Below are positions 23,793 through 38,803 of a stretch of DNA of 43,301 nt, one piece after another. Below the pieces are notes generated by a model that did not search any database, was not told where the DNA came from, and saw nothing but the letters and a program-made list of their open reading frames with translations. The translations under genes and the position numbers were made by a program. The stretch comes from a virus. Location of the stretch: IMG/VR virus record IMGVR_UViG_3300025834_000002; one strand, 5' to 3'. Positions within the stretch are counted from its first letter, which is position 1; every line of letters starts with the position of its first letter.

Positions 23793-24116
23793 CTACCTCC
23801 AGCCCCTCTTACATTGATTAATCACGCTTCGAGCAACATATAACATATGCTCTTTCTGAGCTTTTGTAAGCTTACTAAATAAATCAAAACCTGTGTTACC
23901 ATCAAAATCTTTAAATACTTCATTCCACCTTGACTTTGTATATGATTTAGGCCATCTAGCTTTGTATTTTATAAGTTGTGCTGAGTTAGCATCAAACATT
24001 TTGTCTGATACAACATTTTCGCTGAGCTCGTAGTATATAATACTATTCACCAAAATCCAGTACTGCAAGGTACTAATTTTTTCAAGCTTTCCCATGTAAG
24101 GGTTTTTGAATCTCAT
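23793..24116 (-). CDS. Hypothetical protein with a LigA domain-Ia-like motif
   Basis: Preferred start MRFKNPY (GGGAGGAA RBS). IIYYELSENVVSDKMFDANSAQLIKYKARWP resembles YYv.d.P.isD.eYD.L...L...P. Confidence 0.5.
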   Translation of the reverse strand: MRFKNPYMGKLEKISTLQYWILVNSIIYYELSENVVSDKMFDANSAQLIKYKARWPKSYTKSRWNEVFKDFDGNTGFDLFSKLTKAQKEHMLYVARSVINQCKRGWR

Positions 24117-24246
24117 TCCATTCCTCCCACTCAAGCGCTTCTAATATACAGCGCATACATGGTGTATCTTTTCCCTGATTCCTTTGCATATCATTTACTA
24201 CTGCACCACATTTGATACACATAAAGTTCTTTTGGGGGTCACTCAT
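24082..24246 (-). CDS. Small zinc-ribbon protein (54 aa)
   Basis: Preferred start MSDPQKNF, in ATGA overlap with the upstream 53-aa ORF. CIKCG...CMRC. Confidence 0.55.
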   Translation of the reverse strand: MSDPQKNFMCIKCGAVVNDMQRNQGKDTPCMRCILEALEWEEWNEIQKPLHGKA

Positions 24247-25882: not shown

Positions 25883-25911
25883 ATTATATACTAAGTAAAC
25901 TAGTTTGTAAA
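25883..25911 (-). promoter_or_regulatory. Sigma-A type promoter (the -35 overlaps the end of the upstream gene)
   Basis: Minus strand TTTACAaactagtttacttagtaTATAAT, then N5-AGTAAG. Confidence 0.7.
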
Positions 25912-27045
25912 CATATTTTTTACGTTTTTACTAAAGTTCTTACAGAACCGTTCGTAGCGCTCTCTATCTTCCAAACGCTTCACAGAATCAAGTTCTGATA
26001 TGCTCTGAATCAAACTACTATAATCAAGTTTAGATATACGCTTATTTATTGTAGTTTTACTTAAATCAACTATTAGTTTGTTCTGCTTCCAGAACTCTAA
26101 AATATCCCTTTGTTCACTGAATGCATTATCTAATACGCACCTACTATCTATTAAAGGAATACAACGCCTAGAGATACATTCATAAAATCTTTGTATACTA
26201 AACTCTTTCTTATTGTTTGCTGGTACCACATAGCTGAACTTAGCTCTGTTTACTTCTTTAAAGTATTCATTCTGTGGTATAACATCATTCCTTCCACCAT
26301 TCCAAAATCTATCGTTGGCATAAATCTTAAATTTGGAGTTCTCAGCTATTCCATTATACAAACTATCGTGCAGGTATTTCCTTCCGATATAAGTAATTGT
26401 ATATCCAAAAACAAAGTCCATATCCTTTTCTACCGCAGCAATCTCTTTTCTATAGATATACATATCATAAATAGGTAAGAACTTTACTCCCAATTCTTTC
26501 TGCTTATATACTCCAAATCTACCAACCTTACAATTTCCTGCATAAATCTCTTCCAAATTAGGCTCTAGCCAATCAACTATAAATTGGATTGTAGGAATTG
26601 CATACTTTCTGCTTATATAATAGAACGGATATGTTTGCCTATATTTTGTAAGCATACTATTAAAAGTAACTTTGAGTTCTTCACCACTATAAAATGTTTC
26701 AAACGATTCACGCATTTGTTTTGTAGGTGAAATGGAGTAAGCATAAAATAAAACTAAATCATAATCTGAACCTAGAACTCTTTTAATCTTAACATTATCT
26801 ACCTTCCACATTTGCTTGTTAGCTGCTTTACTTATAATCTTATCTAGCAATAATACCTTAACCCCTGCAGCTACTAGGCGGCTTATGAATCCATGTTCTT
26901 CATATTGCTTATATTTCTTAGCTTGACATATTACAAACGTAATTTCATTATATTTTGCTAGCCTGAGGATAAAGTATATATAAGCTCTCACAATCTCAAT
27001 TTGCACATCCATAAGATGCAGTGGTATTGTAGCCAAAATCTTCAT
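25900..27045 (-). CDS. GT-B-like glycosyltransferase resembling phage DNA beta-glucosyltransferase
   Basis: 381 aa. C-terminal block KKEFSIQRFYECISRRCIPLIDS (26143..26211) resembles, from memory, T4 beta-GT NDNFITLRVWETMASDAVMLIDE. DFVFGYTITYIGRKY resembles DVIYGGSFRSGQRE. Confidence 0.5.
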   Translation of the reverse strand: MKILATIPLHLMDVQIEIVRAYIYFILRLAKYNEITFVICQAKKYKQYEEHGFISRLVAAGVKVLLLDKIISKAANKQMWKVDNVKIKRVLGSDYDLVLFYAYSISPTKQMRESFETFYSGEELKVTFNSMLTKYRQTYPFYYISRKYAIPTIQFIVDWLEPNLEEIYAGNCKVGRFGVYKQKELGVKFLPIYDMYIYRKEIAAVEKDMDFVFGYTITYIGRKYLHDSLYNGIAENSKFKIYANDRFWNGGRNDVIPQNEYFKEVNRAKFSYVVPANNKKEFSIQRFYECISRRCIPLIDSRCVLDNAFSEQRDILEFWKQNKLIVDLSKTTINKRISKLDYSSLIQSISELDSVKRLEDRERYERFCKNFSKNVKNMFTN

Positions 27046-28838: not shown

Positions 28839-29408
28839 TTATTCCTCTAAATTTAGGTGCCTTAATTTTCTAGGTACAAAGGCATATAAAGCAATACATC
28901 CACTATCTGCTGCATCATCATCCCACTTTACTTCACCTTTCTTATTAAGTGATTTAATAGAAGAGGTAAACCCAAGCTTACATATATGCTTAATTGTGGG
29001 CATTTTATTATCCCCATCAATACCCTTAGTTGTTCCTACTACTTTGCTCTTCCAAGCTCTAGTATCTGCACTAAATACCTTTATGCCCTGCTTCCTAGCA
29101 GTATCTACTATTGTACCAACCAAAGCTCCAGTACACTTCATATAGGTTATGCTGAGAACTCCACCTCTGTGCATTCTAATACGCTCTGTAATTATTATTA
29201 GCTTCTCAGCTTTTGGAATCAAATTTGTAAGTAGCTGCTCAATGATTCCACCTAACATAATTCTTTTATCTGACTTGCATATGCAACCTTTAAAGTTTGT
29301 TGACCTAACCTTAAGTAACTTACCATCTGCTGCAATACTTATCCCTGTTTTTGTGTAGCTTTGGTCAATTCCTATAGAAATTACTTTGTACATATAAATA
29401 CCATACAC
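28839..29408 (-). CDS. ruvC: RuvC-like Holliday junction resolvase
   Basis: ISIGIDQSYTKTG (first catalytic Asp), ERIRM, and DDDAADSGCIALYA (C-terminal acidic pair). Start is either GTG 29408 or ATG 29393. Confidence 0.75.
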   Translation of the reverse strand: MYGIYMYKVISIGIDQSYTKTGISIAADGKLLKVRSTNFKGCICKSDKRIMLGGIIEQLLTNLIPKAEKLIIITERIRMHRGGVLSITYMKCTGALVGTIVDTARKQGIKVFSADTRAWKSKVVGTTKGIDGDNKMPTIKHICKLGFTSSIKSLNKKGEVKWDDDAADSGCIALYAFVPRKLRHLNLEE

Positions 29409-30181
29409 CTACAACACTCTTCAAACGCCATTCCAAATAAGTTATTTACCATTGCTCCGAGCTTAGTATTCTTTATGAGTTTCCTGTATACATAATTTAC
29501 CTCACCTTTTCCACTCAGAATAGATTTTAGTTTCTTAGCATCTGGGAAACAGCCAACCTCATTCTCAATAGTAAAGTCACCTAGCACCTTGCGCATTTCT
29601 GCTAGCGTGTACTCATAAGTATGGTCATTAGGATAGTACATATCTTCCTTCTTAAAATGAATTGGAGTACTCAATATCAGCTTACCATTAGGTTTCAATA
29701 GCTTACCTATATTTACCATAAAGCTCCCTACTTTACCTTCTGGTATATGTTCAATAACCTCCATTGCGGATATTATATCAAATTTACCATGTTTCTTAAA
29801 TAGCTGCTTACAAAAGGTGCCCTCACAAATATCCCCATTTTCAGAATATACCAATTTCTGCTGAGCTTGCGTAAGGTAATCTAGCCCATCCAAAATACCT
29901 GCTCTAATATCCACCCCTACATATCTCAACCGCTTTGTATTAAAATCCCTAGCCATGGATTGCTGCATCTTAAGTAGGTTACCATTGCTACACCCAATAT
30001 CTAAAACATTCAGCTCATTATCCTCTGCTTCTTGTGCATTTATATACTTTGTAGCAATCAACATACGAATTACAAAAGCTAAACTAGCACTACTACTCCA
30101 TAAATTCTTGCCATCCAAAGTTCCCTCTGCTCCATCTTTTGCATAGCTTCCATTAATTATTTCTGCTTTTTTATCATTCAT
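29381..30181 (-). CDS. Class I SAM-dependent methyltransferase (not a canonical DNA MTase)
   Basis: Motif I VLDIGCSNG, then DIISAMEVIEHI and LLKPNGKLILSTP. Start MNDKKAEI in ATGA overlap with the upstream stop. No DPPY/NPPY or PCQ motif seen. Confidence 0.8.
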   Translation of the reverse strand: MNDKKAEIINGSYAKDGAEGTLDGKNLWSSSASLAFVIRMLIATKYINAQEAEDNELNVLDIGCSNGNLLKMQQSMARDFNTKRLRYVGVDIRAGILDGLDYLTQAQQKLVYSENGDICEGTFCKQLFKKHGKFDIISAMEVIEHIPEGKVGSFMVNIGKLLKPNGKLILSTPIHFKKEDMYYPNDHTYEYTLAEMRKVLGDFTIENEVGCFPDAKKLKSILSGKGEVNYVYRKLIKNTKLGAMVNNLFGMAFEECCRCMVFICTK

Positions 30182-30981
30182 AACTTTATCCTCCCTACAC
30201 CACAATTAAAGCAGGCATCACGCATATCACATTTTTGCGCTCTTTTGCAATCTCTACTGCTGCATATACCTTTTACCATCTTACCTTCTTCCAATACCCT
30301 ACGCTTATAAAACCTAATAGCTTCTAAGCGCTCAACATAATCCTCAACCTCAGTAGCATCATACTTTTGCATAAATATTTTAAAATCTTGCGTATTCTTG
30401 TCCTCCACCAATACAAAGCCCTTATGTATACCAGTCAAGTGCATATACATCATGAGCTGCTTCTTGCCGCTAGGGTGGCTAGTACAATGCTTAAATTGGA
30501 AGGTGTTCATGGACTTTATCTCTACTACCTGCTGTTCACCCATAAAATCAATTATTGCATCGGGTGTATAGCTTAACTCATAGCGCTTATTAAATCGGCT
30601 TCGGTCCATATCCCTAGCGGCTCCCAGTTCGCCCCTAATGAATAACCTTTGCCACTTCTCATGAATATAATTGCCCTCTTCAAATATACGTTTAAGGCCA
30701 CTTGGTATATTACTGGATTGAATTCGCTTATATAGCAAGCTAAGTACTTGTTCCCTATAGCAGAAATCCCCTTCACCTACAATAATTGCGCTTGCATGTA
30801 GTCCAGCTCTTTCTGCATTAAACCCATTCTTAGTAAGTAAATTATAAATTAGTTTTGATTCTTCCTCAGAGTTTGGCTTTAAGAAGAATAGCTTATTAAA
30901 CTTTTGTTCTAGCATTAAATTAACCGTGCTTAAACCTTTACCGTGCGCTTCTGCTTTAATGCTATCTCTCAGACTACTCAT
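30178..30981 (-). CDS. Cas4/RecB-family PD-(D/E)xK exonuclease with Cys cluster
   Basis: PDAIIDF...VVEIKS core, N-terminal GDFCYRE Cys, and C-terminal C-x6-C-x5-C-x5-C-x2-C. Confidence 0.7.
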   Translation of the reverse strand: MSSLRDSIKAEAHGKGLSTVNLMLEQKFNKLFFLKPNSEEESKLIYNLLTKNGFNAERAGLHASAIIVGEGDFCYREQVLSLLYKRIQSSNIPSGLKRIFEEGNYIHEKWQRLFIRGELGAARDMDRSRFNKRYELSYTPDAIIDFMGEQQVVEIKSMNTFQFKHCTSHPSGKKQLMMYMHLTGIHKGFVLVEDKNTQDFKIFMQKYDATEVEDYVERLEAIRFYKRRVLEEGKMVKGICSSRDCKRAQKCDMRDACFNCGVGRIKL

Positions 30982-31918
30982 CGTCTTCCTCCTCTTCTAT
31001 AGCTTTTTTGCTAATTCCTCTGGACTTCATAATTTCCTTTCGTATGCTAGCCATTTGGTCAAAGGATACAAAACCCCTATCAAAAAATAATGGTATTTCT
31101 GCTTCCATCATTGGATTGCAAACCTTTGATTTAATTACTTTAAGCTTCATAATCATACCAATCTTTTCACTCTCCGCAGAACTATTTATATTCTTATTTG
31201 GAATATCAATCCAAGCCCTGCGTGCAGTTCTAATTCTTACGCTTGAATAGAATCTAGGTGCCCTACCCCCAGGAGTATCATCCTTTTCCCCAAAGGCCAT
31301 AGCTCCTATCTTATCTACCACTTGGTTCATCATAACAAATGTGGTGCCTGAATACTCAATAACCTCTTCTAAAATTGGTAAGTGCTTGTGAAATAACCTA
31401 GCCCTTCCACCCATTCTAGCTTCCATAGTTTCATCATTACCAGACTTAATAGCTTTCTTTAGCTTCTCAATATCTTCCTTTGGCTTGCAAGCTGAAACCG
31501 TATCCAAAATTATTAAAGGTATTCCAGCTTCTGCAAAGTTCTGTATTTTGTTCATTGCTGCATCCCCATGTTTGGGTCTATATACCAGCATCTGCTTAGC
31601 CCTATTACCAAATTGTGCTGCTCTCTGAGCATCAAAAGTTCCTTCGGCTGGAACATATAAGCACAAATCATGCTGCCCACAGAGCTGATACCCTAGGGAT
31701 GTTTTACCAGAACTCTCAGGTCCAAATATCTCAAACATCCTTCCCTCAGGCATTCCACCTCCTAAAATATTATCTAAGTCCTCAATACCTGAGCCCCACC
31801 TTGGAATCTTCAAAATAGATTTTTTGGAACCTAGCGAATAAATAGAACCTGTTCCTTCTTTCTTCTCAATGCTAGCACATAGCCGCATTATTGCTTCTTT
31901 ATTTGTTTTTGCTGCCAT
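30974..31918 (-). CDS. recA: RecA-family recombinase
   Basis: GIEDLDNILGGGMPEGRMFEIFGPESSGKTSL (Walker A), LIILDTVSA (Walker B), acidic C-terminus EEEEDDE. Confidence 0.85.
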   Translation of the reverse strand: MAAKTNKEAIMRLCASIEKKEGTGSIYSLGSKKSILKIPRWGSGIEDLDNILGGGMPEGRMFEIFGPESSGKTSLGYQLCGQHDLCLYVPAEGTFDAQRAAQFGNRAKQMLVYRPKHGDAAMNKIQNFAEAGIPLIILDTVSACKPKEDIEKLKKAIKSGNDETMEARMGGRARLFHKHLPILEEVIEYSGTTFVMMNQVVDKIGAMAFGEKDDTPGGRAPRFYSSVRIRTARRAWIDIPNKNINSSAESEKIGMIMKLKVIKSKVCNPMMEAEIPLFFDRGFVSFDQMASIRKEIMKSRGISKKAIEEEEDDE

Positions 31919-34608
31919 TATCTGTTCAACCCCTTCATATATAGCGTACTATTGTACTTCTTTATTCTCTCCACATATACACTCTTTTTGAATTCCAATG
32001 CGCCACTCTCTTGTAATGCTCTAATTACCTTAGCATTAATTTGTCTCTTCGGAACTCTCTCTAGGAAATCCTCTAAGCTCTTAAATCTGCCTTTCTTACG
32101 CTCTGCTTCTATTGCTGCTGCTGCTTTCTCTCCTACATTCTTTATATTTGAAATACCAGCAGATAAAACATCTTCACCTTCAAATTTTACCATCTTATAC
32201 ATTGAACCAAAATTAACATGCGGCAATAAAACAATACCACCATCTCTTACATAAATTGTCTCAAATCTGAATCTGTCCTCTTTCTTAGCATATTTTAGAG
32301 TAACATACCAGAACTTCTCTGGGTGATATACCTTATAATACATCTGTTCAATGCTTATTACCCCATAGCCTGCAGCATGTCCTTTGTTAAAGGAATATAT
32401 AAGCAATACATTAAATATATGCTCAGCTTCTTTCTTTGAGTAACCTCCTGCCTTAGCGCCTTTATAGAATATTACCTTAAGTTCTGCTATCTCTCGGTCT
32501 CTAAATTTAATAGCACGACCTCTACCTTTCAGAACCTTCAATATCCTATCTACTTCACCCCATTCATACTTACCAATCTCCCTACAAATCTTAACTATCT
32601 GCTCTTGGTATATTATTGTGCCATATGTTTCCTTTGAATATCTGAACCAAGGACTGCTCTTAACATCCTCTAGGTTGCGCTTGTTATTTGCATAAGCTTC
32701 TGGCATTTTTAAACTCATAGGTCCAGGTCTATTTAAAGCAGAACCAGCAAGTATATCTTCTACACAATCTGCTTCAATCTGCTGCAATATGTTCTTTGCA
32801 CCATTTGACTCAAATTGAAATATACCATCTGTATTTCCCTTTCCAAATTCCTTCATAATCTTTTCATCTTCGCACCATGAGTATTCAAAATATTCTCCAG
32901 TAAGTTCTTGCATTTCTTTGAGGACAGACATTGTTCTAAGGCCTAATATATCAAATTTAACAACCCTTATTAATTCCAAATTACCCAAATCATAAGCTGT
33001 AACTATTTTACCTCCATGCTTCTCTAGCGCGACGTAATCAATCAAATCCGCACCTGTAATTGCTACACCTGCAGCATGTGTTCCATAATACTTAATTTTC
33101 TTATACATCTTTGAAAAGTGCTTCACTATATTATCAAACTGCTTGTTTAACATCTTGCATTCAATTTTCTTTTGGACCTCTTCATAGTCAAATATTTCCT
33201 CTTTTACATTGTCCTTAAGAAACTTCTTAATCATTAATTTATCTTGCACTTCCTCTACTCCGCATACCTTAAATAAATCATTTAGTAAATTATCTACTTT
33301 ATACAATCCATAAGATACAACCTGAGCTGAGAACCCCTCATACTTTTTAACCAAATACTCTATTACCTCATGGCGCCTATCTGTTTCAAAATCAAGGTCT
33401 ACATCGGGAACCTTCTTCTTATCCATTCGCATGAATCGGTCAAAATCAAGGTTAAAATATAGGCTATCAATGTTTGTAATATCTAGTGCATAAGCTGTCA
33501 AGCTATTACAAACTGAACCTCTTCCAGGTCCAACCATTATGCCTTGCTCTTTAGTCCACTTAACATAATCTTGAACTATCAGAAAGTAATCTACAAAGCC
33601 AAGATGTGAAATAACATCTATCTCATGCTTACACCTTGCTATGGCTTCTTTAGTATACTTTCCCTTCTTCTTTAAACCACGCTTAACTTCTTTAATTAAT
33701 GTACCTAGAGAATCTTCACCTTGCACTGTTGGGAGCTTTAAGGGTAGTTGGTCTAAAATATCAGCCTCACATTTATCTACTATTTCATCTAGGTTAGCTA
33801 CCATCTTCTTAGCTATTCTATACGGGTCCTCAAACTCTTTACCGTGCATCTTCACAAATCGCTCTATTATTTCCTCTTCGGTTGGCATATATCGTTCCGA
33901 ATAAGTATCTCCCATTTCATGCCCTGACATTTTATGCATTTTACAATAGCTATCATAATCTGCCTTAGCTCCATAGTGCGAATCTGAGGTTAGTATGCAC
34001 TTTACCTTATTAGCTCTAGCCAGCTGCATAATCTTAGTATTCACTCTCTCCTGCAAACCGGTAGCGGTATCTACTTCTGCTCCCGGCTTATTGTGCAATT
34101 TATAAGGTTGTATCTCTATATAGAAGTTAGCTCCAAAAATAGCCTTATATTTCTTTAATGCTTTCTCAGCTAATTTCATATCACCTACAGCAATCATCTG
34201 ATTAATAAAGCCTCCTACGCACGCTGATGTGCATATCAAGCCTTCCGAATATTTCTCTAATAGTGCAAAATCTACTATTGGTTTATAATACATCTGCTCG
34301 AGGTTAGCTATTGTAAGAATTCTATTAAGGTTCTTATACCCAGCTAAGTTCATCGCAAATAAGCATAAGTGGTACCGCTTAACGCTAGCGCCATCAAACT
34401 TAGGTTGGAAGTAAGCCTCTACACCCAAGATTGATTTTATACCCACCTCTTTACAAGCGAAATATGTTTCTGCTAGCCCTGAGCTTGAACCGTGGTTGCT
34501 TGTGCTGAGCGCTTTGTGCCCCATATCTAGCGCTAGTTTAGCAAGCTGTATTGGCTTTCCAAATCCATCAAACAAACTAAATTCATCATGCCTATGCAAA
34601 TCAATCAT
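31918..34608 (-). CDS. dnaE: DNA polymerase III alpha subunit (DnaE-type, compact 896 aa)
   Basis: N-terminal PHP motif DLHRHDEFSLFDG, VPDVDLDFE, GTHAAGVAI, KFDILGL, IYQEQ, and a C-terminal HhH (NIKNVGEKAAAAI). Confidence 0.9.
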   Translation of the reverse strand: MIDLHRHDEFSLFDGFGKPIQLAKLALDMGHKALSTSNHGSSSGLAETYFACKEVGIKSILGVEAYFQPKFDGASVKRYHLCLFAMNLAGYKNLNRILTIANLEQMYYKPIVDFALLEKYSEGLICTSACVGGFINQMIAVGDMKLAEKALKKYKAIFGANFYIEIQPYKLHNKPGAEVDTATGLQERVNTKIMQLARANKVKCILTSDSHYGAKADYDSYCKMHKMSGHEMGDTYSERYMPTEEEIIERFVKMHGKEFEDPYRIAKKMVANLDEIVDKCEADILDQLPLKLPTVQGEDSLGTLIKEVKRGLKKKGKYTKEAIARCKHEIDVISHLGFVDYFLIVQDYVKWTKEQGIMVGPGRGSVCNSLTAYALDITNIDSLYFNLDFDRFMRMDKKKVPDVDLDFETDRRHEVIEYLVKKYEGFSAQVVSYGLYKVDNLLNDLFKVCGVEEVQDKLMIKKFLKDNVKEEIFDYEEVQKKIECKMLNKQFDNIVKHFSKMYKKIKYYGTHAAGVAITGADLIDYVALEKHGGKIVTAYDLGNLELIRVVKFDILGLRTMSVLKEMQELTGEYFEYSWCEDEKIMKEFGKGNTDGIFQFESNGAKNILQQIEADCVEDILAGSALNRPGPMSLKMPEAYANNKRNLEDVKSSPWFRYSKETYGTIIYQEQIVKICREIGKYEWGEVDRILKVLKGRGRAIKFRDREIAELKVIFYKGAKAGGYSKKEAEHIFNVLLIYSFNKGHAAGYGVISIEQMYYKVYHPEKFWYVTLKYAKKEDRFRFETIYVRDGGIVLLPHVNFGSMYKMVKFEGEDVLSAGISNIKNVGEKAAAAIEAERKKGRFKSLEDFLERVPKRQINAKVIRALQESGALEFKKSVYVERIKKYNSTLYMKGLNR

Positions 34609-35630
34609 ATTATGAAGAACTCCTCACCATAAATTCTTAGGTTTCTGTGCTTCGTTAGCGCTACTTGGTCGTCTATGTCCGCTAGCACTAAATCAAAAGG
34701 ACTTCTAAGAGTTGAAAGGACAGGGTCTGTACCATTCACTTCCCTACGCTCTCTACCATATACATAATCTTTCTCATTATATTCGTATATGTCTGAATCT
34801 TTGTCAGGTTTGAAAAGGTTTGTACATCTCCCAGTTCTAGCTGTATTCACATAAAATGCAGCTGGTGCGTGAATATCTATTAAATCAACAAGCAGGGGAT
34901 AATAGTCAAGTAGCGCACTCCACATCTTATATGCCATTACGTTATCTGTTTCTGGCTGTATCTGCTTATCAATTCTATGTCTAACAAAATTTATTGCGCT
35001 TCCCAAATCCATCGACATCCAATAGTAAGTTTCCATAGCTCTTGGCAATATAAACCTTGCATCTAATAAACTAATTTCTTTACTATCTAACATTTCACAA
35101 TACAGCTTTTTTGATTCCCTAATAAGCCATTCATACCTACCACCAAAATCATCCTTAGCAATTCCCTCAAACCATTCCTCATAATTCCCTAAATAATTGC
35201 CAGGACTATTCTCAATACTTGTTGGAACTACCGCTGCTTTATTTGTCCACCACTTATCTGCTGAGCATTCCGCAGAGAATGTTGCTGTTCTATATCTTAA
35301 AATGTGAGTAACATCTTGTCCGCTAATTCCCTCAAAAAGGAAGTTTATCTTTATTGTCTCGAGTGCTGAAGGAAGCATCTTGCCCTTAAATATCATATAA
35401 ATTATTTTATCCTTTTCATATTCTGATAAATCATTATTGTGAATTGGATTATCTTCCCACGTTGCAGTCGCAAAATTTACTAAATAATCTCTCAAATCCT
35501 GCATTGTAGGAGCTTTCTCAATTGTTACATTAATAGCTTCTACATTATTCTTAAACTCTGTTGTTGGCTTTTCACCAAATCTAATTGGCATTGGGAAATT
35601 CACTGGTTTCAAATTATTATTTACTGGCAT
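34605..35630 (-). CDS. Divergent ThyX-fold (flavin-dependent thymidylate synthase-like) protein
   Basis: ETIKINFLFEG...LRYRTATFSAECS (RYR at 35289..35297 replaces RHR) and ARFILPRAMETYYWMSMDLGSAINFVRHRID align by eye to the two ThyX signature blocks. Has N- and C-terminal extensions. Confidence 0.6.
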   Translation of the reverse strand: MPVNNNLKPVNFPMPIRFGEKPTTEFKNNVEAINVTIEKAPTMQDLRDYLVNFATATWEDNPIHNNDLSEYEKDKIIYMIFKGKMLPSALETIKINFLFEGISGQDVTHILRYRTATFSAECSADKWWTNKAAVVPTSIENSPGNYLGNYEEWFEGIAKDDFGGRYEWLIRESKKLYCEMLDSKEISLLDARFILPRAMETYYWMSMDLGSAINFVRHRIDKQIQPETDNVMAYKMWSALLDYYPLLVDLIDIHAPAAFYVNTARTGRCTNLFKPDKDSDIYEYNEKDYVYGRERREVNGTDPVLSTLRSPFDLVLADIDDQVALTKHRNLRIYGEEFFII

Positions 35631-36184
35631 ATTTGTATCCCCCTTAATTTTTTTAAAGTCTTTAAATTTTTAATTCTGAAAACCAAATCACCAGTTTCCC
35701 CTTGATTATATTTACTATCTATTAGGAAAACCTTATACCCAAATCTTGATATACAATTTGCATTCGCTCGATTATCTTCCACCACAAATTCTACTTCTGG
35801 AAATTTGGTAACTATTTCTATGTGCTTGTTCTCGCTATGAAACAAAACATCATATGGTAAATTATTAAACTCTAACCACAGCTTAGTCTGAATCCAAAGG
35901 TCTGGATATTTGTGCATAGGCCTTGCGGTGATTAATATTATCTTATAGTCAACATCCCTCAGAGCGCACAACAGCTCTGCTGCTCCTTCTAATACGGGTA
36001 ACTTAATCTTATATCCGCTAGTTCTATATTCGTCCTTGAGCTTCTTATACTTAGCATATGTTAAAAAGGCTTTCATTTCGTTTAGGTCTGAAAAACTACT
36101 ACCTATTTTAAGATTAACAAAATCTATCCAACAATCGGGGTAATTATTTAATACACCGTCTATATCAAAGGCACAACATTTCAT
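35621..36184 (-). CDS. HAD-superfamily phosphatase, 5'(3')-deoxyribonucleotidase-like
   Basis: Motif I FDIDGVL near the N-terminus, ILITAR, VEDN. ATGA overlap with the upstream stop. Confidence 0.65.
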   Translation of the reverse strand: MKCCAFDIDGVLNNYPDCWIDFVNLKIGSSFSDLNEMKAFLTYAKYKKLKDEYRTSGYKIKLPVLEGAAELLCALRDVDYKIILITARPMHKYPDLWIQTKLWLEFNNLPYDVLFHSENKHIEIVTKFPEVEFVVEDNRANANCISRFGYKVFLIDSKYNQGETGDLVFRIKNLKTLKKLRGIQICQ

Positions 36185-37074
36185 ATGTTTAAACACCTCT
36201 CTACAATATTATTTGTTTTAACAGAATGGTCTAGCTGAGCATATCTTCCAAGCAACCTTATACCACAAAAGCCTGTCATTTTCAATTCGTTAACAATCTG
36301 AGTTTTTGTACACCACCTATCAGCTTTGCCATTCCACAAAACCTTTATAGGCTGTGAGCTTTCTAATATTCTACCTTGCTTGCCAACCTTTGTCATTCTA
36401 TATACTGCCGAATCTGAACTTAAATCGTAAATATAATCTAAATCCAAATTAGCAGTAAAAACATCATTACCACGTTCTAAATATTTATAAAAATGAACAT
36501 CCCTTAACATATTATCTAAGAAGAAACCGCATCCGCATAATGCTGCTAGCTCTTGCAAATTTATGGTAGAAATTAAATCCTCATATTCGTCAAAAACCAT
36601 TTGACCATTTCTAAGAATATACCCTAGCGAATGCTGATTAATATTAATACTTTCTACATCTGCAAATATAATATGTTTACTATTATTTTTAATCAATTTC
36701 TGCACCAAGTTAGCTTTTAGCATATCCACACCAAAAATTTCATTGCTGCCAGCGCTCATGCTTTCACTAACCGAAACTCCACCTCTAGCCTTTGCGTTAT
36801 ACATCTCGTTTGCAAACTCTGGTACGCTGCGGCTTAAACCTCCATCTGTTAAATATCCAACTCTGAAGTATCTCATTTCTGATTCATTTATTCCCAACCT
36901 ACCTATCAAGGTAGCACTATACCTATCTATTTTTAATATTCTTGGCCCCATCTGAGAACCTGATAACTGACCACCAATATTTCCTCTTCCTGCAATCAAA
37001 GTATAACCTTTATGTTTGAGCATTTCAATGGCTATCAAGCCAGTTATTCCTCCACCAATTATATACTTACCCAT
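36181..37074 (-). CDS. FAD/NAD(P)-binding Rossmann flavoprotein, UDP-galactopyranose mutase-like
   Basis: KYIIGGGITGLIAIEMLKHKGYTLIAGRGNIGGQL (GxGxxG...IGG) and C-terminal LLGRYAQLDHSV resemble Glf-type proteins. Confidence 0.5.
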   Translation of the reverse strand: MGKYIIGGGITGLIAIEMLKHKGYTLIAGRGNIGGQLSGSQMGPRILKIDRYSATLIGRLGINESEMRYFRVGYLTDGGLSRSVPEFANEMYNAKARGGVSVSESMSAGSNEIFGVDMLKANLVQKLIKNNSKHIIFADVESININQHSLGYILRNGQMVFDEYEDLISTINLQELAALCGCGFFLDNMLRDVHFYKYLERGNDVFTANLDLDYIYDLSSDSAVYRMTKVGKQGRILESSQPIKVLWNGKADRWCTKTQIVNELKMTGFCGIRLLGRYAQLDHSVKTNNIVERCLNI

Positions 37075-37570
37075 ATATATGTCTCACCAACCTATCAAAA
37101 TCTGCATACTTAACCTTTACCTTACGGTTAATTGTGCTTGCATAAAATAGACTTTTAAGAATTGCCTCATGTACTTCTAAAGAAGAACCATGCTGCTCTG
37201 AGGACTCTTTTATATCTTCACTTTCCACCAAAATAAGTAAAGGGTCCAAACCACTCAGCCTTTTATCTATTGAATCATAACTGCTAAAGTCTAAACCTCT
37301 CAGAGCGCCATATGTTTGCTCTGTCAAGTGAAGTCTATCAAAAATTATATTATTACTACTAGCTGCAATCTGCAATAAAACCTCCAACCTCACATTGCTA
37401 ATTTCTTGCGCTAGCTTTAGTTCCCTTGGAGTAGCAATCTTCATATTTGGAAGAACCTTTACCCAATCCGAATACTCATCATGAAATATTACATACTTAA
37501 GTCTATCTGCTAACTTCTTAGCCAAAATACTCTTTCCAACTCTATCTACACCTTCAATTATTATATTCAT
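37067..37570 (-). CDS. Thymidylate kinase-like dNMP kinase
   Basis: IIIEGVDRVGKS P-loop and FDRLHLTEQTYG (the DRY/DRH region of Tmk). Confidence 0.65.
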   Translation of the reverse strand: MNIIIEGVDRVGKSILAKKLADRLKYVIFHDEYSDWVKVLPNMKIATPRELKLAQEISNVRLEVLLQIAASSNNIIFDRLHLTEQTYGALRGLDFSSYDSIDKRLSGLDPLLILVESEDIKESSEQHGSSLEVHEAILKSLFYASTINRKVKVKYADFDRLVRHIYG

Positions 37571-37929
37571 TTCTCTACCTCCAATTTCTCCACATTCATC
37601 TGAATTTTAGTAATTACTGAAGCAAATAACTCTTCGGCATCTATGCCACTAAATATTGCTAAATTAAGAACTGTTATAAATACATCCGCTAACTCTTCCA
37701 TTTTCTCGGCTAAATCATATGTTGAATTCCTATGAGTTTTCCACCGCTTATCTGCTTTTAATAGCTCTCCTAGCTCCTCTACTATTGCACACATATGATA
37801 CTTGAATAATTCTGGATTATCTTTTGTTGCTAGCTTTCCAACCACTATTTGCTGATATGCTCTCTGAGCTTCATATAAGGACTTTAAGGACTCCCTTTCA
37901 GGAGCCCCCATATCTTTATTACCATTCAT
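37567..37929 (-). CDS. All-alpha NTP pyrophosphohydrolase (MazG / dimeric dUTPase-like)
   Basis: AIVEELGELLKADKRWK and MEELADVF acidic metal-binding pairs. Preferred start MNGNKDM (GAGGA RBS), overlapping the SSB stop. Confidence 0.65.
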   Translation of the reverse strand: MNGNKDMGAPERESLKSLYEAQRAYQQIVVGKLATKDNPELFKYHMCAIVEELGELLKADKRWKTHRNSTYDLAEKMEELADVFITVLNLAIFSGIDAEELFASVITKIQMNVEKLEVEK

Positions 37930-38803
37930 TTTCGTCGTCCTCTTCATCATCCTCGTCTGACTCGTCTGCTGCTTCTAGCTTCTTAATGTAATACTTCTCC
38001 GGCTTCTTAGGCTCCACCTTAATCTTGCGCTTTTTACATAATGCATAGAGTTCTTTTGGAGTGAGGTCCTCATACTCATTTTCTTCTTCCTCATCCTCCT
38101 CATCCTCTTCCTCTTCTTCCTCTACACGCTTCTTAGGTTTAGATTTGGACTTAGACTTTTTAGGAGCTTCCTCCTCTTCTTCTTCATCATCTTCGTCCTC
38201 ATCTTCATCATACTTAGCCTTAGACTTAGCTTTTACTTTCTTGCTTTTTTTATTTCTTCTAGGAGTTTCGTCCTCATCCTCATCTTCATCCGAATCCTCA
38301 GGATATGCTTTATCTAATATAGAAAGTACCTTGCTTTCACTAAGTGCCTTTGCTGCTTTATTCTTAAATTTAACCTTATCCATCGGAACAACCGAGTAGG
38401 TGGTATTAGTCTGAGAACCATTCTTTGTGATTATATAATCTCTATCAGTCATGGACTCATAAGTCTCACACATTCCAATAAGAGATGGTATAGGTGAACA
38501 ATTGTTTACCGCTCCCATTAGAAGTTTAGTCTCCTTAGCTTCATAATCCCATACAGACCAACAATATAAATCTCTATGTCTCAAGCTTTCATCATCGTGG
38601 TGCTTGCAATCTCTATCAAATATCTCTTGGCAAGGAACATTAATTCCTGCTTCAAAACTATCGTGAAACTGTATTTTTAAACCATCATCAATTTCCTGCA
38701 AGAATCTTACTCTAACCTTTACACCTGACTTGAAGTACATTATCTTACCTTTGTTTGCGCCACTGCGCTTAACATCATTTTTAATATCACTCATTAATCC
38801 CAT
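37919..38803 (-). CDS. ssDNA-binding protein (T4 gp32-like core) with charged linker, HeH motif and acidic tail ending in Trp
   Basis: VRVRFLQE..FHDSF..C..C.HH..YCWSVW resembles the gp32 AVIRFLPS..H..C..C..C..YWANI layout. Lies between primase and the nucleotide genes. C-terminus DEDDEEDDENEW. Confidence 0.55.
   Translation of the reverse strand: MGLMSDIKNDVKRSGANKGKIMYFKSGVKVRVRFLQEIDDGLKIQFHDSFEAGINVPCQEIFDRDCKHHDDESLRHRDLYCWSVWDYEAKETKLLMGAVNNCSPIPSLIGMCETYESMTDRDYIITKNGSQTNTTYSVVPMDKVKFKNKAAKALSESKVLSILDKAYPEDSDEDEDEDETPRRNKKSKKVKAKSKAKYDEDEDEDDEEEEEEAPKKSKSKSKPKKRVEEEEEEDEEDEEEENEYEDLTPKELYALCKKRKIKVEPKKPEKYYIKKLEAADESDEDDEEDDENEW
38069..38302 (-). repeat. Low-complexity GAA/GAT/AAG coding tract (poly-D/E and poly-K blocks)
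   Basis: Read directly; the plus strand is a long pyrimidine-rich tcttcctc tract. Confidence 0.7.

Follow-up and report, generated by a model that had tools for sequence, protein, structure and literature searches.

The stretch of viral DNA analyzed here (IMG/VR record IMGVR_UViG_3300025834_000002; 43,301 nucleotides, hereafter the window) encodes a protein related to the flavin-dependent thymidylate synthase (TS) ThyX within a cluster of five genes of nucleotide metabolism. Both its fold and its profile matches place this ThyX-like protein in the Thy1/ThyX superfamily, and it belongs to a large, almost wholly uncultured phage clade, here called "type C" after its loop motif C-[ST]-[GA]-D. 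It presents a new variant loop on a known enzyme scaffold and lies in a conserved, largely uncharacterized phage nucleotide module. We establish here the ThyX fold, the nucleotide-holding arginines, the order of the genes and their linkage. The protein may well still convert dUMP to dTMP, and we give about even weight to its being a divergent dTMP synthase.

The ThyX-like protein matched the Pfam family Thy1 (PF02511) over residues 52-245 with an E-value of 1.5e-17 and 64.5 bits (cut-off 24.8). An AlphaFold2 (AF2) model based on an alignment of 32 relatives reached a pLDDT of 87.6, and a Foldseek search of the PDB with this model returned exclusively ThyX or PolB chains among the best 50 of 156 matches (E<=0.001). 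The top matches were PolB (4p5b, E=9e-9), followed by the ThyX proteins of PBCV-1, Mycobacterium tuberculosis (Mtb) and Thermotoga maritima (Tm). When a profile of the clade (86 members) was compared with canonical ThyX using hhalign, a probability of 99.7% and an E-value of 1.9e-24 were obtained. A plain phmmer search against the PDB sequences gave noise only and no ThyX. Pfam Thy1, AF2/Foldseek and hhalign all agree on the ThyX fold assigned in the original prediction, for which a Foldseek comparison of the predicted structure had been named as a check. Canonical ThyX proteins (T. maritima TM0449, M. tuberculosis, PBCV-1 A674R) share the fold with a target-normalized TM of 0.6-0.7 and have the equivalents of R78, R80, R147, R174 and E58 in common with the window protein. 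Many viral ThyX genes are, like that of the window, phage-borne and located beside replication genes. The best structural match, PolB (PDB 4p5a/4p5b), is the UMP/dUMP C5-methylase of polyoxin biosynthesis and only ~17-20% identical to the window protein.

The sequence and numbering of TM0449 (TmThyX) were checked against PDB entries including the S88A, Y91F and R174K mutants. The loop of the window protein reads R112-Y-R114-T-A-T-F-S-A-E-C122-S-A-D125-K-W-W. Here R112-Y113-R114 corresponds to R78-H79-R80 of TmThyX, R192 to R147 and R219 to R174, and with the Tm spacing from RxR T117 falls without gaps on S83, C122 on S88, S123 on G89, A124 on R90 and D125 on Y91. We adopted this gapless mapping because of the hhalign comparison with canonical ThyX and because phage ThyX proteins form a graded series of loop types, running from S-Q-R-Y over [SA]-[QM]-R-x and G-G-R-D to C-[ST]-G-D. 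Two other alignments move the loop by 1-2 residues, and no register gives back the Arg-Tyr pair. The ThyX signature RHRxxSxxxxSxR(Y) is hence lost: where canonical ThyX has Ser88-Gly89-Arg90-Tyr91, type C proteins have Cys-Ser-Ala/Gly-Asp, with Ala at the Arg90 position of the window protein and Gly in most of the clade. This confirms the altered loop without the trailing Arg that had been noticed earlier. The reading of RYR for RHR was likewise correct, but it is not diagnostic, since several close relatives carry RHR and the middle residue of RxR is free across the clade (His in 31/86). The equivalents of Tm R74 and R90 are Thr108 and Ala124, and His109 corresponds to the phosphate-contacting His83 of PolB. 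A mapping of Tm R174 to Asp229, which would imply cytosine specificity, was ruled out; R174 maps to the conserved R219. The protein scored well below the cut-off of the NCBIfam thyX equivalog TIGR02170 (34.5 vs 87.9 bits). Neither test, of the signature loop or of the equivalog score, supports ThyX sensu stricto, and the protein should therefore not be classed as such.

Type C proteins differ from canonical ThyX also by N- and C-terminal extensions and a variable insertion. In the window protein the highly conserved N-terminal extension comprises ~13-23 aa (in hhalign, Tm residue 1 falls on residue 14-24), the C-terminal extension ~66-70 aa, in which residues 260-301 form a block rich in invariant positions, and the insertion ~25 aa (residues 141-165). 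Earlier estimates of ~70 aa and ~90 aa for the two extensions were too high. The conserved blocks read MPxNNxLxPxxxPMxxRFGExPxTxF at residues 1-25 and FY..TARTG..TNL..PD.D.D...N..D..Y...R...NGT at residues 260-301; both rank with the best-conserved regions of the protein and lack a counterpart in solved ThyX structures.

A word-index search yielded 355 relatives of the ThyX-like protein, mostly on ~45-kb contigs, and an exhaustive profile search recovered 770 clusters (50% identity) at E<=1e-3 and 65 at E<=1e-30. Among 86 full-length clade representatives, the equivalents of Tm R78, R80, R147 and R174 (R112, R114, R192 and R219) are conserved in 86, 81, 83 and 84, and that of E58 in 78. In the loop, C122 is present in 62 (otherwise Ser, Gly or Thr), [ST]123 in 74, G/A124 in 74 and D/E125 in 72; in more distant type C members the motif runs on as D-x-R-H. 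The only cultured member in the phage database is Geobacillus phage GR1 (OK896991), whose protein (UDY80709) shares 44% identity and is annotated as FAD-dependent thymidylate synthase. The GR1 cluster around the type C gene encodes a 464-aa glycosyltransferase, an HD protein, a protein similar to nucleoside 2-deoxyribosyltransferase (Ndt-like), a nitroreductase-type flavin reductase, a dUTPase, a NUDIX protein and a guanylate-kinase-like protein. Elsewhere, the GR1 genome carries an amidoligase, a gamma-glutamylcyclotransferase, a thymidine kinase and a class Ia ribonucleotide reductase (RNR). A literature search for GR1 found no paper. For comparisons of gene neighborhoods we used the window, three loci of named homologues (GR1, P0011 and P0006), 21 IMG/VR loci of close relatives and 80 loci from the distant-member profile; individual loci are cited by L numbers.

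The roles of the exchanged residues are documented in characterized enzymes. In PolB complexes the Tm R90 equivalent hydrogen-bonds the pyrimidine O4 and the phosphate, the Ser-Ala preceding this Arg binds phosphate, and the Tm R174 equivalent binds O2 (PMC5003785). In the same enzyme, the equivalents of Tm R74 and R90 contact the phosphate, those of the residues retained in type C bind the 3'-OH, the phosphate and the pyrimidine O2, and the Y91-equivalent Tyr, which stacks on or lids the base, is required for catalysis (PMC5003785). In the ThyX proteins of Mtb and H. pylori this Tyr is described as a lid that keeps solvent from uracil C5 and flavin N5 (PMC6514825), and in TmThyX Ser88 and Tyr91 are called strictly conserved and critical, with Arg90 tuning Tyr91 (PMC11940539). 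Judged by these equivalences, type C keeps the holders of O2, of the sugar and of part of the phosphate and replaces precisely the residues that contact O4 or cover the reaction center. The type C cysteine would occupy the Ser88 position, near C6. PolB is also a precedent for a ThyX paralogue recruited beyond plain dTMP supply, with extra loops gating the substrate (PMC5003785). It differs from type C in that it keeps Ser96-Ala97-Arg98-Tyr99 and continues to methylate uracil reductively; its gene lies in an antibiotic cluster of Streptomyces and not in a phage.

The five genes are consecutive on the minus strand, as had been predicted (Table 1). All junctions from the SSB-like gene to RecA overlap by 1-32 nt, with purine-rich sequences upstream that resemble Shine-Dalgarno sites, and the polymerase start overlaps the ThyX-like stop codon as ATGA. 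The overlaps at each junction together with these purine-rich runs indicate that the five genes are coupled. Translational coupling was therefore rightly proposed, but the cluster does not stand alone: the five genes are one stretch of a longer primase-to-RecA replication array and no separate operon. The SSB-like gene keeps its position in the relatives (family F4). The tail of its product is a very long acidic and lysine-rich low-complexity region (D/E and K runs), which gives rise to a spurious Ser-rich open reading frame (ORF) on the plus strand (38061-38399).

Table 1. Genes of the nucleotide cluster and neighboring features in the window.
Feature	Position	Strand	Basis or remark
Thy1/ThyX-fold protein of type C, 341 aa	34605..35630	-	Pfam Thy1, AF2 and Foldseek
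HAD-superfamily phosphatase, 191 aa from GTG start (alternative ATG 36184)	35621..36196	-	DIDG motif I; candidate 5'(3')-deoxynucleotidase
Rossmann (GxGxxG...IGG) flavoprotein-like protein, putative member of the UDP-galactopyranose mutase (UGM)/amine-oxidase superfamily, 297 aa	36181..37074	-	motif and homologues
P-loop (d)NMP/deoxynucleoside-kinase-like protein, 167 aa	37067..37570	-	sub-threshold Pfam and PHROG 761
MazG/dimeric-dUTPase-like all-alpha NTP pyrophosphohydrolase, 127 aa	37567..37950	-	alternative start 37929, end coordinate of the original prediction
SSB-like protein	37919..38803	-	PHROG 1607 SSB 2e-7; upstream neighbor, overlaps cluster
PHP/DNA polymerase III alpha-type replicative polymerase	31918..34608	-	Pfam DNA_pol3_alpha 6.6e-60, PHP 2.4e-38; downstream neighbor
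Class I S-adenosylmethionine (SAM)-dependent methyltransferase (MTase), small-molecule type	29381..30205	-	Pfam Methyltransf_23 1e-14

Each ThyX in the compared loci was classed by its loop type and neighbors were counted within 5 kb, for 35 type C genes and 55 genes of other loop types (the MazG, HAD and Rossmann counts come from single-pass profiles). A P-loop kinase of the window's family accompanies 31/35 type C genes and 1/55 of the others. A YfbR-like HD 5'-nucleotidase was found at 19/35 compared to 0/55, and a compact protein of the ThyA superfamily that resembles gp42 of phage T4, usually encoded directly downstream, at 16/35 compared to 0/55. These type C counts are confounded by shared ancestry among 23 close loci; the 12 distant type C loci have different polymerases, and among them the kinase is present in 9/12 and the gp42-like gene in 4/12 (by profile). 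The kinase linkage is specific to type C. HAD phosphatases adjoin other ThyX types as well (15/21 of the G-G-R-D type). The nucleotidase function, represented by the candidate HAD enzyme in the window and by a YfbR-like HD enzyme in most relatives, points to non-orthologous displacement. The window, L003 and L018 form a sub-variant with the short kinase, the 297-aa Rossmann protein and the HAD phosphatase, and without kinase-Ndt fusion, HD nucleotidase and gp42-like gene.

The partner proteins could be assigned to different degrees. The NTP pyrophosphatase exceeded three Pfam cut-offs (dUTPase_2, 29.4 vs 22.9 bits; PRA-PH, 25.2 vs 21.3 bits; MazG, 24.6 vs 22 bits), which bears out its description as MazG/dimeric-dUTPase-like, and it matched PHROG 173 (NTP-PPase) at 5e-8. 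For the kinase, predicted to be Tmk-like, the P-loop kinase assignment stood, but full-length Tmk profiles remained below their cut-offs and matched the P-loop region only (PF02223, 21.7 vs 27 bits, residues 5-25; TIGR00041, 24.4 vs 83 bits). The Pfam families Thymidylate_kin, dNK and AAA_28 were all sub-threshold, and PHROG 761 (thymidylate kinase) matched at 3e-8. In most relatives this kinase family is fused to an Ndt-like domain. The HAD protein carries the DxDG motif expected of the predicted DxD nucleotidase (motif I, FDIDGVL), but its match to NT5C (PF06941) is below the cut-off (E=6e-4, 20.1 vs 24.8 bits, 136/180 profile positions), and its PHROG matches include PNK-type phosphatases (PHROG 420, 5e-13; PHROG 415, PNK phosphatase, 3e-12). 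It holds the place of the YfbR-like HD 5'-nucleotidase of most relatives.

The 297-aa protein had been described as an FAD Rossmann protein. This description is upheld mainly via homologues, since the window protein itself passes no FAD-family cut-off. Searched alone, it shows the N-terminal GxGxxG only (NAD_binding_8, E=0.16), and its orthologue in L018 reaches E=0.0075; some of the distant homologues reach the NAD_binding_8 or Amino_oxidase cut-offs. In the PDB, the family profile matched UDP-galactopyranose mutases best (E=0.03), and the motifs LISTIP and GRFxxW are collinear. An AF2 model from a three-sequence alignment was unusable (pLDDT 35). The word-index search returned three relatives, but the view of the protein as an orphan had to be given up, as profile searches found the family beside many type C genes. 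Fourteen homologues from the profile search adjoin type C ThyX-like genes; at 12/35 type C genes, among them 9/12 of the distant ones, a family member is encoded no more than 1.4 kb upstream. In six distant loci a MazG-like domain is fused to the C-terminus of the Rossmann protein (L036:2603-3817, L037:3165-4394, L038:8627-9910, L040:8507-9730, L043:8638-9987 and L053:8442-9791), and these Rosetta-stone fusions link the 297-aa protein functionally to the NTP pyrophosphatase. Furthermore, weaker, full-length homologues (E=1e-7 to 1e-11), Rossmann flavoproteins of ~320 aa, are encoded at phage thyX genes of the near-canonical RHR...S-Q-R type, whose start codon they overlap (L049:8887-9852, L054:1922-2935, L059:4823-5806 and L100:8862-9833). 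This arrangement suggests that Rossmann flavoproteins are a general, undescribed ThyX partner. In GR1 the nitroreductase-type flavin reductase stands in place of the 297-aa protein. Possibly, the 297-aa protein is a ThyX-associated flavoprotein that acts as reductase or as C1-supplying partner.

The compact gp42-like protein (~170-200 aa) is unannotated and has no Pfam match on record. The best PDB match of its profile is the T4 dCMP hydroxymethylase (1b49, E=3.9e-7), and it carries equivalents of the catalytic Cys148, the R-S-x-D motif, the cytosine-specifying Asp179 and GSLHVY. Its genes were found at L002:9023-9589, L008:11002-11598, L014:10552-11154, L034:11037-11555, L038:11318-11863 and L001 (GR1):9969-10424 and in other loci, and L009 encodes a fusion of the protein with a P-loop kinase. 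From the window the gp42-like gene is absent, as the family profile gave a best E-value of 0.053 against its six-frame translation. Likewise, no ThyA, second ThyX, RNR, Ndt-like domain or dCMP deaminase was found in the window. A dCMP deaminase is present in several relatives.

Distant type C genes lie among genes for SAM-MTases, a short-chain dehydrogenase/reductase (SDR) epimerase, radical SAM, Ndt-like and uracil-DNA-glycosylase (UDG)-like proteins. Such neighbors are typical of base-modification islands, and this is circumstantial evidence. Unrelated SAM-MTases of the small-molecule type (TylF, FkbM and Methyltransf_23) directly flank type C genes across L031, L035 and L036; SAM-MTase genes are located at L018:11032-11802, L031:10558-11130, L035:9151-9933 and L036:3798-4298. 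An NAD-dependent sugar epimerase/dehydratase is encoded in L034, and a similar SDR-like ORF was seen in L039 by eye only. A P-loop kinase fused to a domain resembling the UDG superfamily is found a few genes from the type C gene at L031:11130-12017 (Pfam UDG, E=3e-4), L037:6403-7347 and L042:10843-11718. The SAM-MTase of the window sits between a Cas4-like exonuclease and a RuvC-like gene. A weak homologue (E ~9e-4, family F70) directly follows the ThyX-like gene in L018, and the window enzyme may be an accessory of the module.

The starting expectation for a phage Thy1 protein is a thymidylate synthase. In a dTMP-synthesizing pathway the five genes would form the nucleotide-supply section of the phage replication module. 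The MazG-like enzyme would supply dNMP (dUMP) from dNTP, and the ThyX-like protein, from a phage clade of its own, would use flavin and folate to transfer a one-carbon unit to C5 of a pyrimidine nucleotide. The P-loop kinase would take dTMP to dTDP, the Rossmann flavoprotein would assist this reaction with flavin or reductant, and the HAD phosphatase would trim the dNMP pool. These substrates, the roles of flavoprotein and phosphatase and the product of the ThyX-like protein are what we infer from the comparisons. We favor dTMP synthesis because the arginines that hold O2, sugar and phosphate are retained and because the ThyX-like gene is the only TS-family gene in an essentially whole genome. 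The G+C content of ~36% points to a high thymidylate demand. The flavoprotein family at near-canonical thyX genes and the flavin reductase in GR1 fit a reaction that consumes reducing equivalents. Furthermore, the separate gp42-like gene of 16/35 relatives argues for a td-like (thymidylate synthase) role of the ThyX-like protein, by analogy to T4 with its td and gene 42. The dCMP deaminase of several relatives and the GR1 thymidine kinase were counted towards this reading as well.

Several observations weigh against a plain dTMP synthase. Ser88, Arg90 and Tyr91 of ThyX are replaced, so that the tyrosine required for catalysis in PolB is lost, and the thyX equivalog cut-off is missed. A kinase linked specifically to type C is the pattern seen when the host kinase cannot handle the product. 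A nucleotidase beside a TS would be counter-productive for plain dTMP supply, yet it is kept by means of the unrelated HAD and HD folds. The window lacks a dCMP deaminase to feed dUMP, and the neighbors of distant type C genes resemble those of base-modification islands.

Another reading is a real possibility, although a less probable one: that the ThyX-like enzyme makes a non-canonical C5-pyrimidine nucleotide (5-hydroxymethyl-dUMP, or 5-methyl- or 5-hydroxymethyl-dCMP), which the cluster installs in phage DNA. Cys122, at the Ser88 position by C6, could serve as Michael nucleophile, as in ThyA, gp42 and TrmFO. The loss of the O4 binder Arg90 and the exchange of the Tyr91 lid for Asp125 could re-specify the enzyme towards the cytosine N4 or, alternatively, could admit and activate water for hydration of the exocyclic methylene. 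Of the competing nucleotides, the dNTP would be destroyed by the MazG-like enzyme and the dNMP by the phosphatase; phosphorylation of the new dNMP would be left to the kinase. The triple change S88C/R90G(A)/Y91D, found in 60-64/86 clade representatives, affects residues of known function (PMC5003785; PMC6514825; PMC11940539). The type C-specific kinase (31/35 vs 1/55), the kinase-Ndt fusions and the missed equivalog cut-off fit this reading, as do the SAM-MTases of several families, the SDR epimerase, the radical SAM protein and the UDG-like fusion near distant type C genes and the glycosyltransferase within the GR1 cluster. The retention of the nucleotidase via two unrelated folds is the strongest support for the idea of the original prediction that such a cluster destroys the old nucleotide while making a new one. 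Since the window has no gp42-like gene, any modification by its phage would fall to the ThyX-like enzyme.

On the other hand, the exchange of Ser for Cys is conservative, and Ser88 variants of TmThyX retain activity. Tyr91 is also absent from other phage ThyX types (G-G-R-D; PB1-like E-T-S-R-A) without known modification, and the loop alignment is not unique, with alternatives shifted by 1-2 residues. Many relatives already have a separate gp42-like enzyme, and neither the flavoprotein nor the HAD partner is confined to type C. In addition, GATC does not occur in the window, where ~54 sites are expected (maximal-order Markov model, z=-7.4), so that the window DNA is evidently not generically immune to restriction. 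This total avoidance speaks against a modified base and weakly for dTMP synthesis. GATC is also avoided in the relatives L002, L008, L018, L041 and L043, and other relatives show no avoidance. As there is no correlation with the presence of a gp42-like gene, GATC avoidance is weak evidence on DNA modification. GATATC is likewise missing from the window (0 observed vs 9.8 expected).

Compared with the replacement sets of T4 and SPO1 (gp42/dUMP hydroxymethylase, gp56 dCTPase/dUTPase, gp1 dNMP kinase, cd deaminase and dTMP nucleotidase), a candidate for each function is found in the window or in its relatives. The original prediction had read the cluster as the classical recipe for pyrimidine replacement. 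The resemblance to such gene sets and the maintenance of kinase and nucleotidase support this, whereas the flavoprotein and the HAD phosphatase also occur beside other ThyX types. A further difference is that the known hydroxymethylases have a ThyA fold, whereas the universal TS-family member of type C loci has a ThyX fold, and the window lacks both the gp42-like gene and the deaminase. We consider it less likely than not, but worth stating, that the Thy1 proteins of type C represent a new class of enzymes that modify pyrimidine nucleotides with the help of flavin; on a ThyX scaffold they would use the loop Cys and Asp to make 5-hydroxymethyl-dUMP or 5-(hydroxy)methyl-dCMP. Together with the pyrophosphatase, the nucleotidase and the kinase, they would give widespread uncultured Clostridia phages and GR1 a non-canonical pyrimidine independent of ThyA-family hydroxymethylases.

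It is improbable that the cluster mainly serves deoxynucleotide salvage and pool rebalancing for an AT-rich phage. The nucleotidase would then turn host dNMPs into deoxynucleosides, the Ndt-like domain of the relatives would swap bases, and the kinase, as a deoxynucleoside kinase, would re-phosphorylate the products. The ThyX-like protein, which lacks part of the phosphate-binding set, would then act on a substrate bound in another way than dUMP in canonical ThyX, be it a nucleoside or a different nucleotide (the phosphate-contacting R74 and R90 equivalents are Thr108 and Ala124). Consistent with salvage, the kinase matches dNK weakly as well as Tmk, its family is fused to Ndt-like domains in most relatives, a 5'-nucleotidase is always adjacent, and the window has neither RNR nor dCMP deaminase. 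However, the window itself lacks an Ndt-like domain, the phosphate ligand R147 has a conserved equivalent, and His109 matches PolB His83. We know of no ThyX-family enzyme that acts on nucleosides, and salvage would leave the conserved Cys and Asp unexplained. Finally, the replacement of residues called critical for ThyX catalysis and the adjacency of type C and gp42-like genes, which is conserved across distant phages with different polymerases, could speak for an inactive protein or one that works only with a partner (e.g. the gp42-like protein) as nucleotide-binding or flavin-carrying subunit, but this is very improbable, as loop and nucleotide-holding arginines are conserved over hundreds of clusters, indicating an active site under selection, and the window and several relatives keep an intact ThyX-like gene without a gp42-like gene.

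The window (~43.3 kb, G+C ~36%) is an essentially complete phage genome whose predicted protein-coding genes are exclusively on the minus strand. Among its products are an SPP1-type portal, an HK97-type capsid protein, both terminase subunits (small and large), an LLH holin and an NlpC/P60 lysin. It also encodes a DnaG-type primase, the SSB-like protein, the PHP/Pol III alpha polymerase, RecA, the Cas4-like exonuclease, RuvC-like resolvases and RNase H. The phage is a siphovirus of ~43 kb, and its host is probably a member of the Clostridia. The word-index search found an identical copy of the ThyX-like protein on a 43,315-bp contig. Relatives of the gene occur in 3 of ~186,000 species-representative genomes; the matches lie in metagenome-assembled genome bins labelled Clostridia, Ruminococcus and Bacteroidales, and one of the contigs (44 kb) is phage-sized.

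Two further ORFs of the window were noted, both on the minus strand. For a 113-aa stand-alone ORF (23793-24134), the match to NAD-dependent DNA ligases is limited to their N-terminal Ia domain (Pfam Nlig-Ia, E=2.4e-18), and no ligase catalytic domain was found near it. A 381-aa ORF (25900-27045) lies between a DUF7192 gene and an AAA_5 (CobS-like) gene and has no homologue in any fetched relative, where these two genes adjoin each other. It was rejected as a candidate DNA glycosyltransferase: a single sub-threshold match to Glyco_trans_1_2 (E=0.0096) was obtained, and no PHROG, PDB or locus homologue. A weak Glyco_trans_1_2 match is likewise present at L037:2255-3199, adjoining the module of that locus.

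To our knowledge, every phage route to 5-substituted pyrimidine nucleotides demonstrated so far relies on a ThyA-fold enzyme. The ThyX reaction proceeds by way of a methylene on flavin N5 and an exocyclic one on the base, and hydration instead of reduction is possible in principle. In the searchable literature, no report of a characterized ThyX-family hydroxymethylase or cytosine methylase was found, only a hypothesis for Bacillus phage SP-15. For its Thy1-family protein gp130, hydroxymethyluridylate synthase activity was proposed without experiments (Kropinski et al., 2018; PMC5977210), and the view of the original prediction that a ThyX-based route would be undescribed has to be qualified. 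SP-15 gp130 is a divergent phage Thy1 encoded beside Ndt-like and SDR genes, and the YfbR-like HD nucleotidase of SP-15 is homologous to that of the relatives (HD profile, E=1.6e-26). As a type C relative gp130 was rejected; it has no RxR...C-[ST]-G-D loop, was missed by the clade profile and matched the canonical profile weakly.

The type C clade, with its Cys-x-Gly-Asp loop and its own kinase and nucleotidase, is the obvious place to look for a hydration route, and the cultured phage GR1 is available for a direct test of type C function. Two further uncharacterized families surfaced with it, the ThyX-associated flavoprotein and the compact gp42-like protein, the latter widespread in the same phages. 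If type C proteins are plain thymidylate synthases, ThyX catalysis can do without residues that are held to be essential for it. Otherwise, these phages would hold a new DNA-modification pathway and a new enzyme activity.

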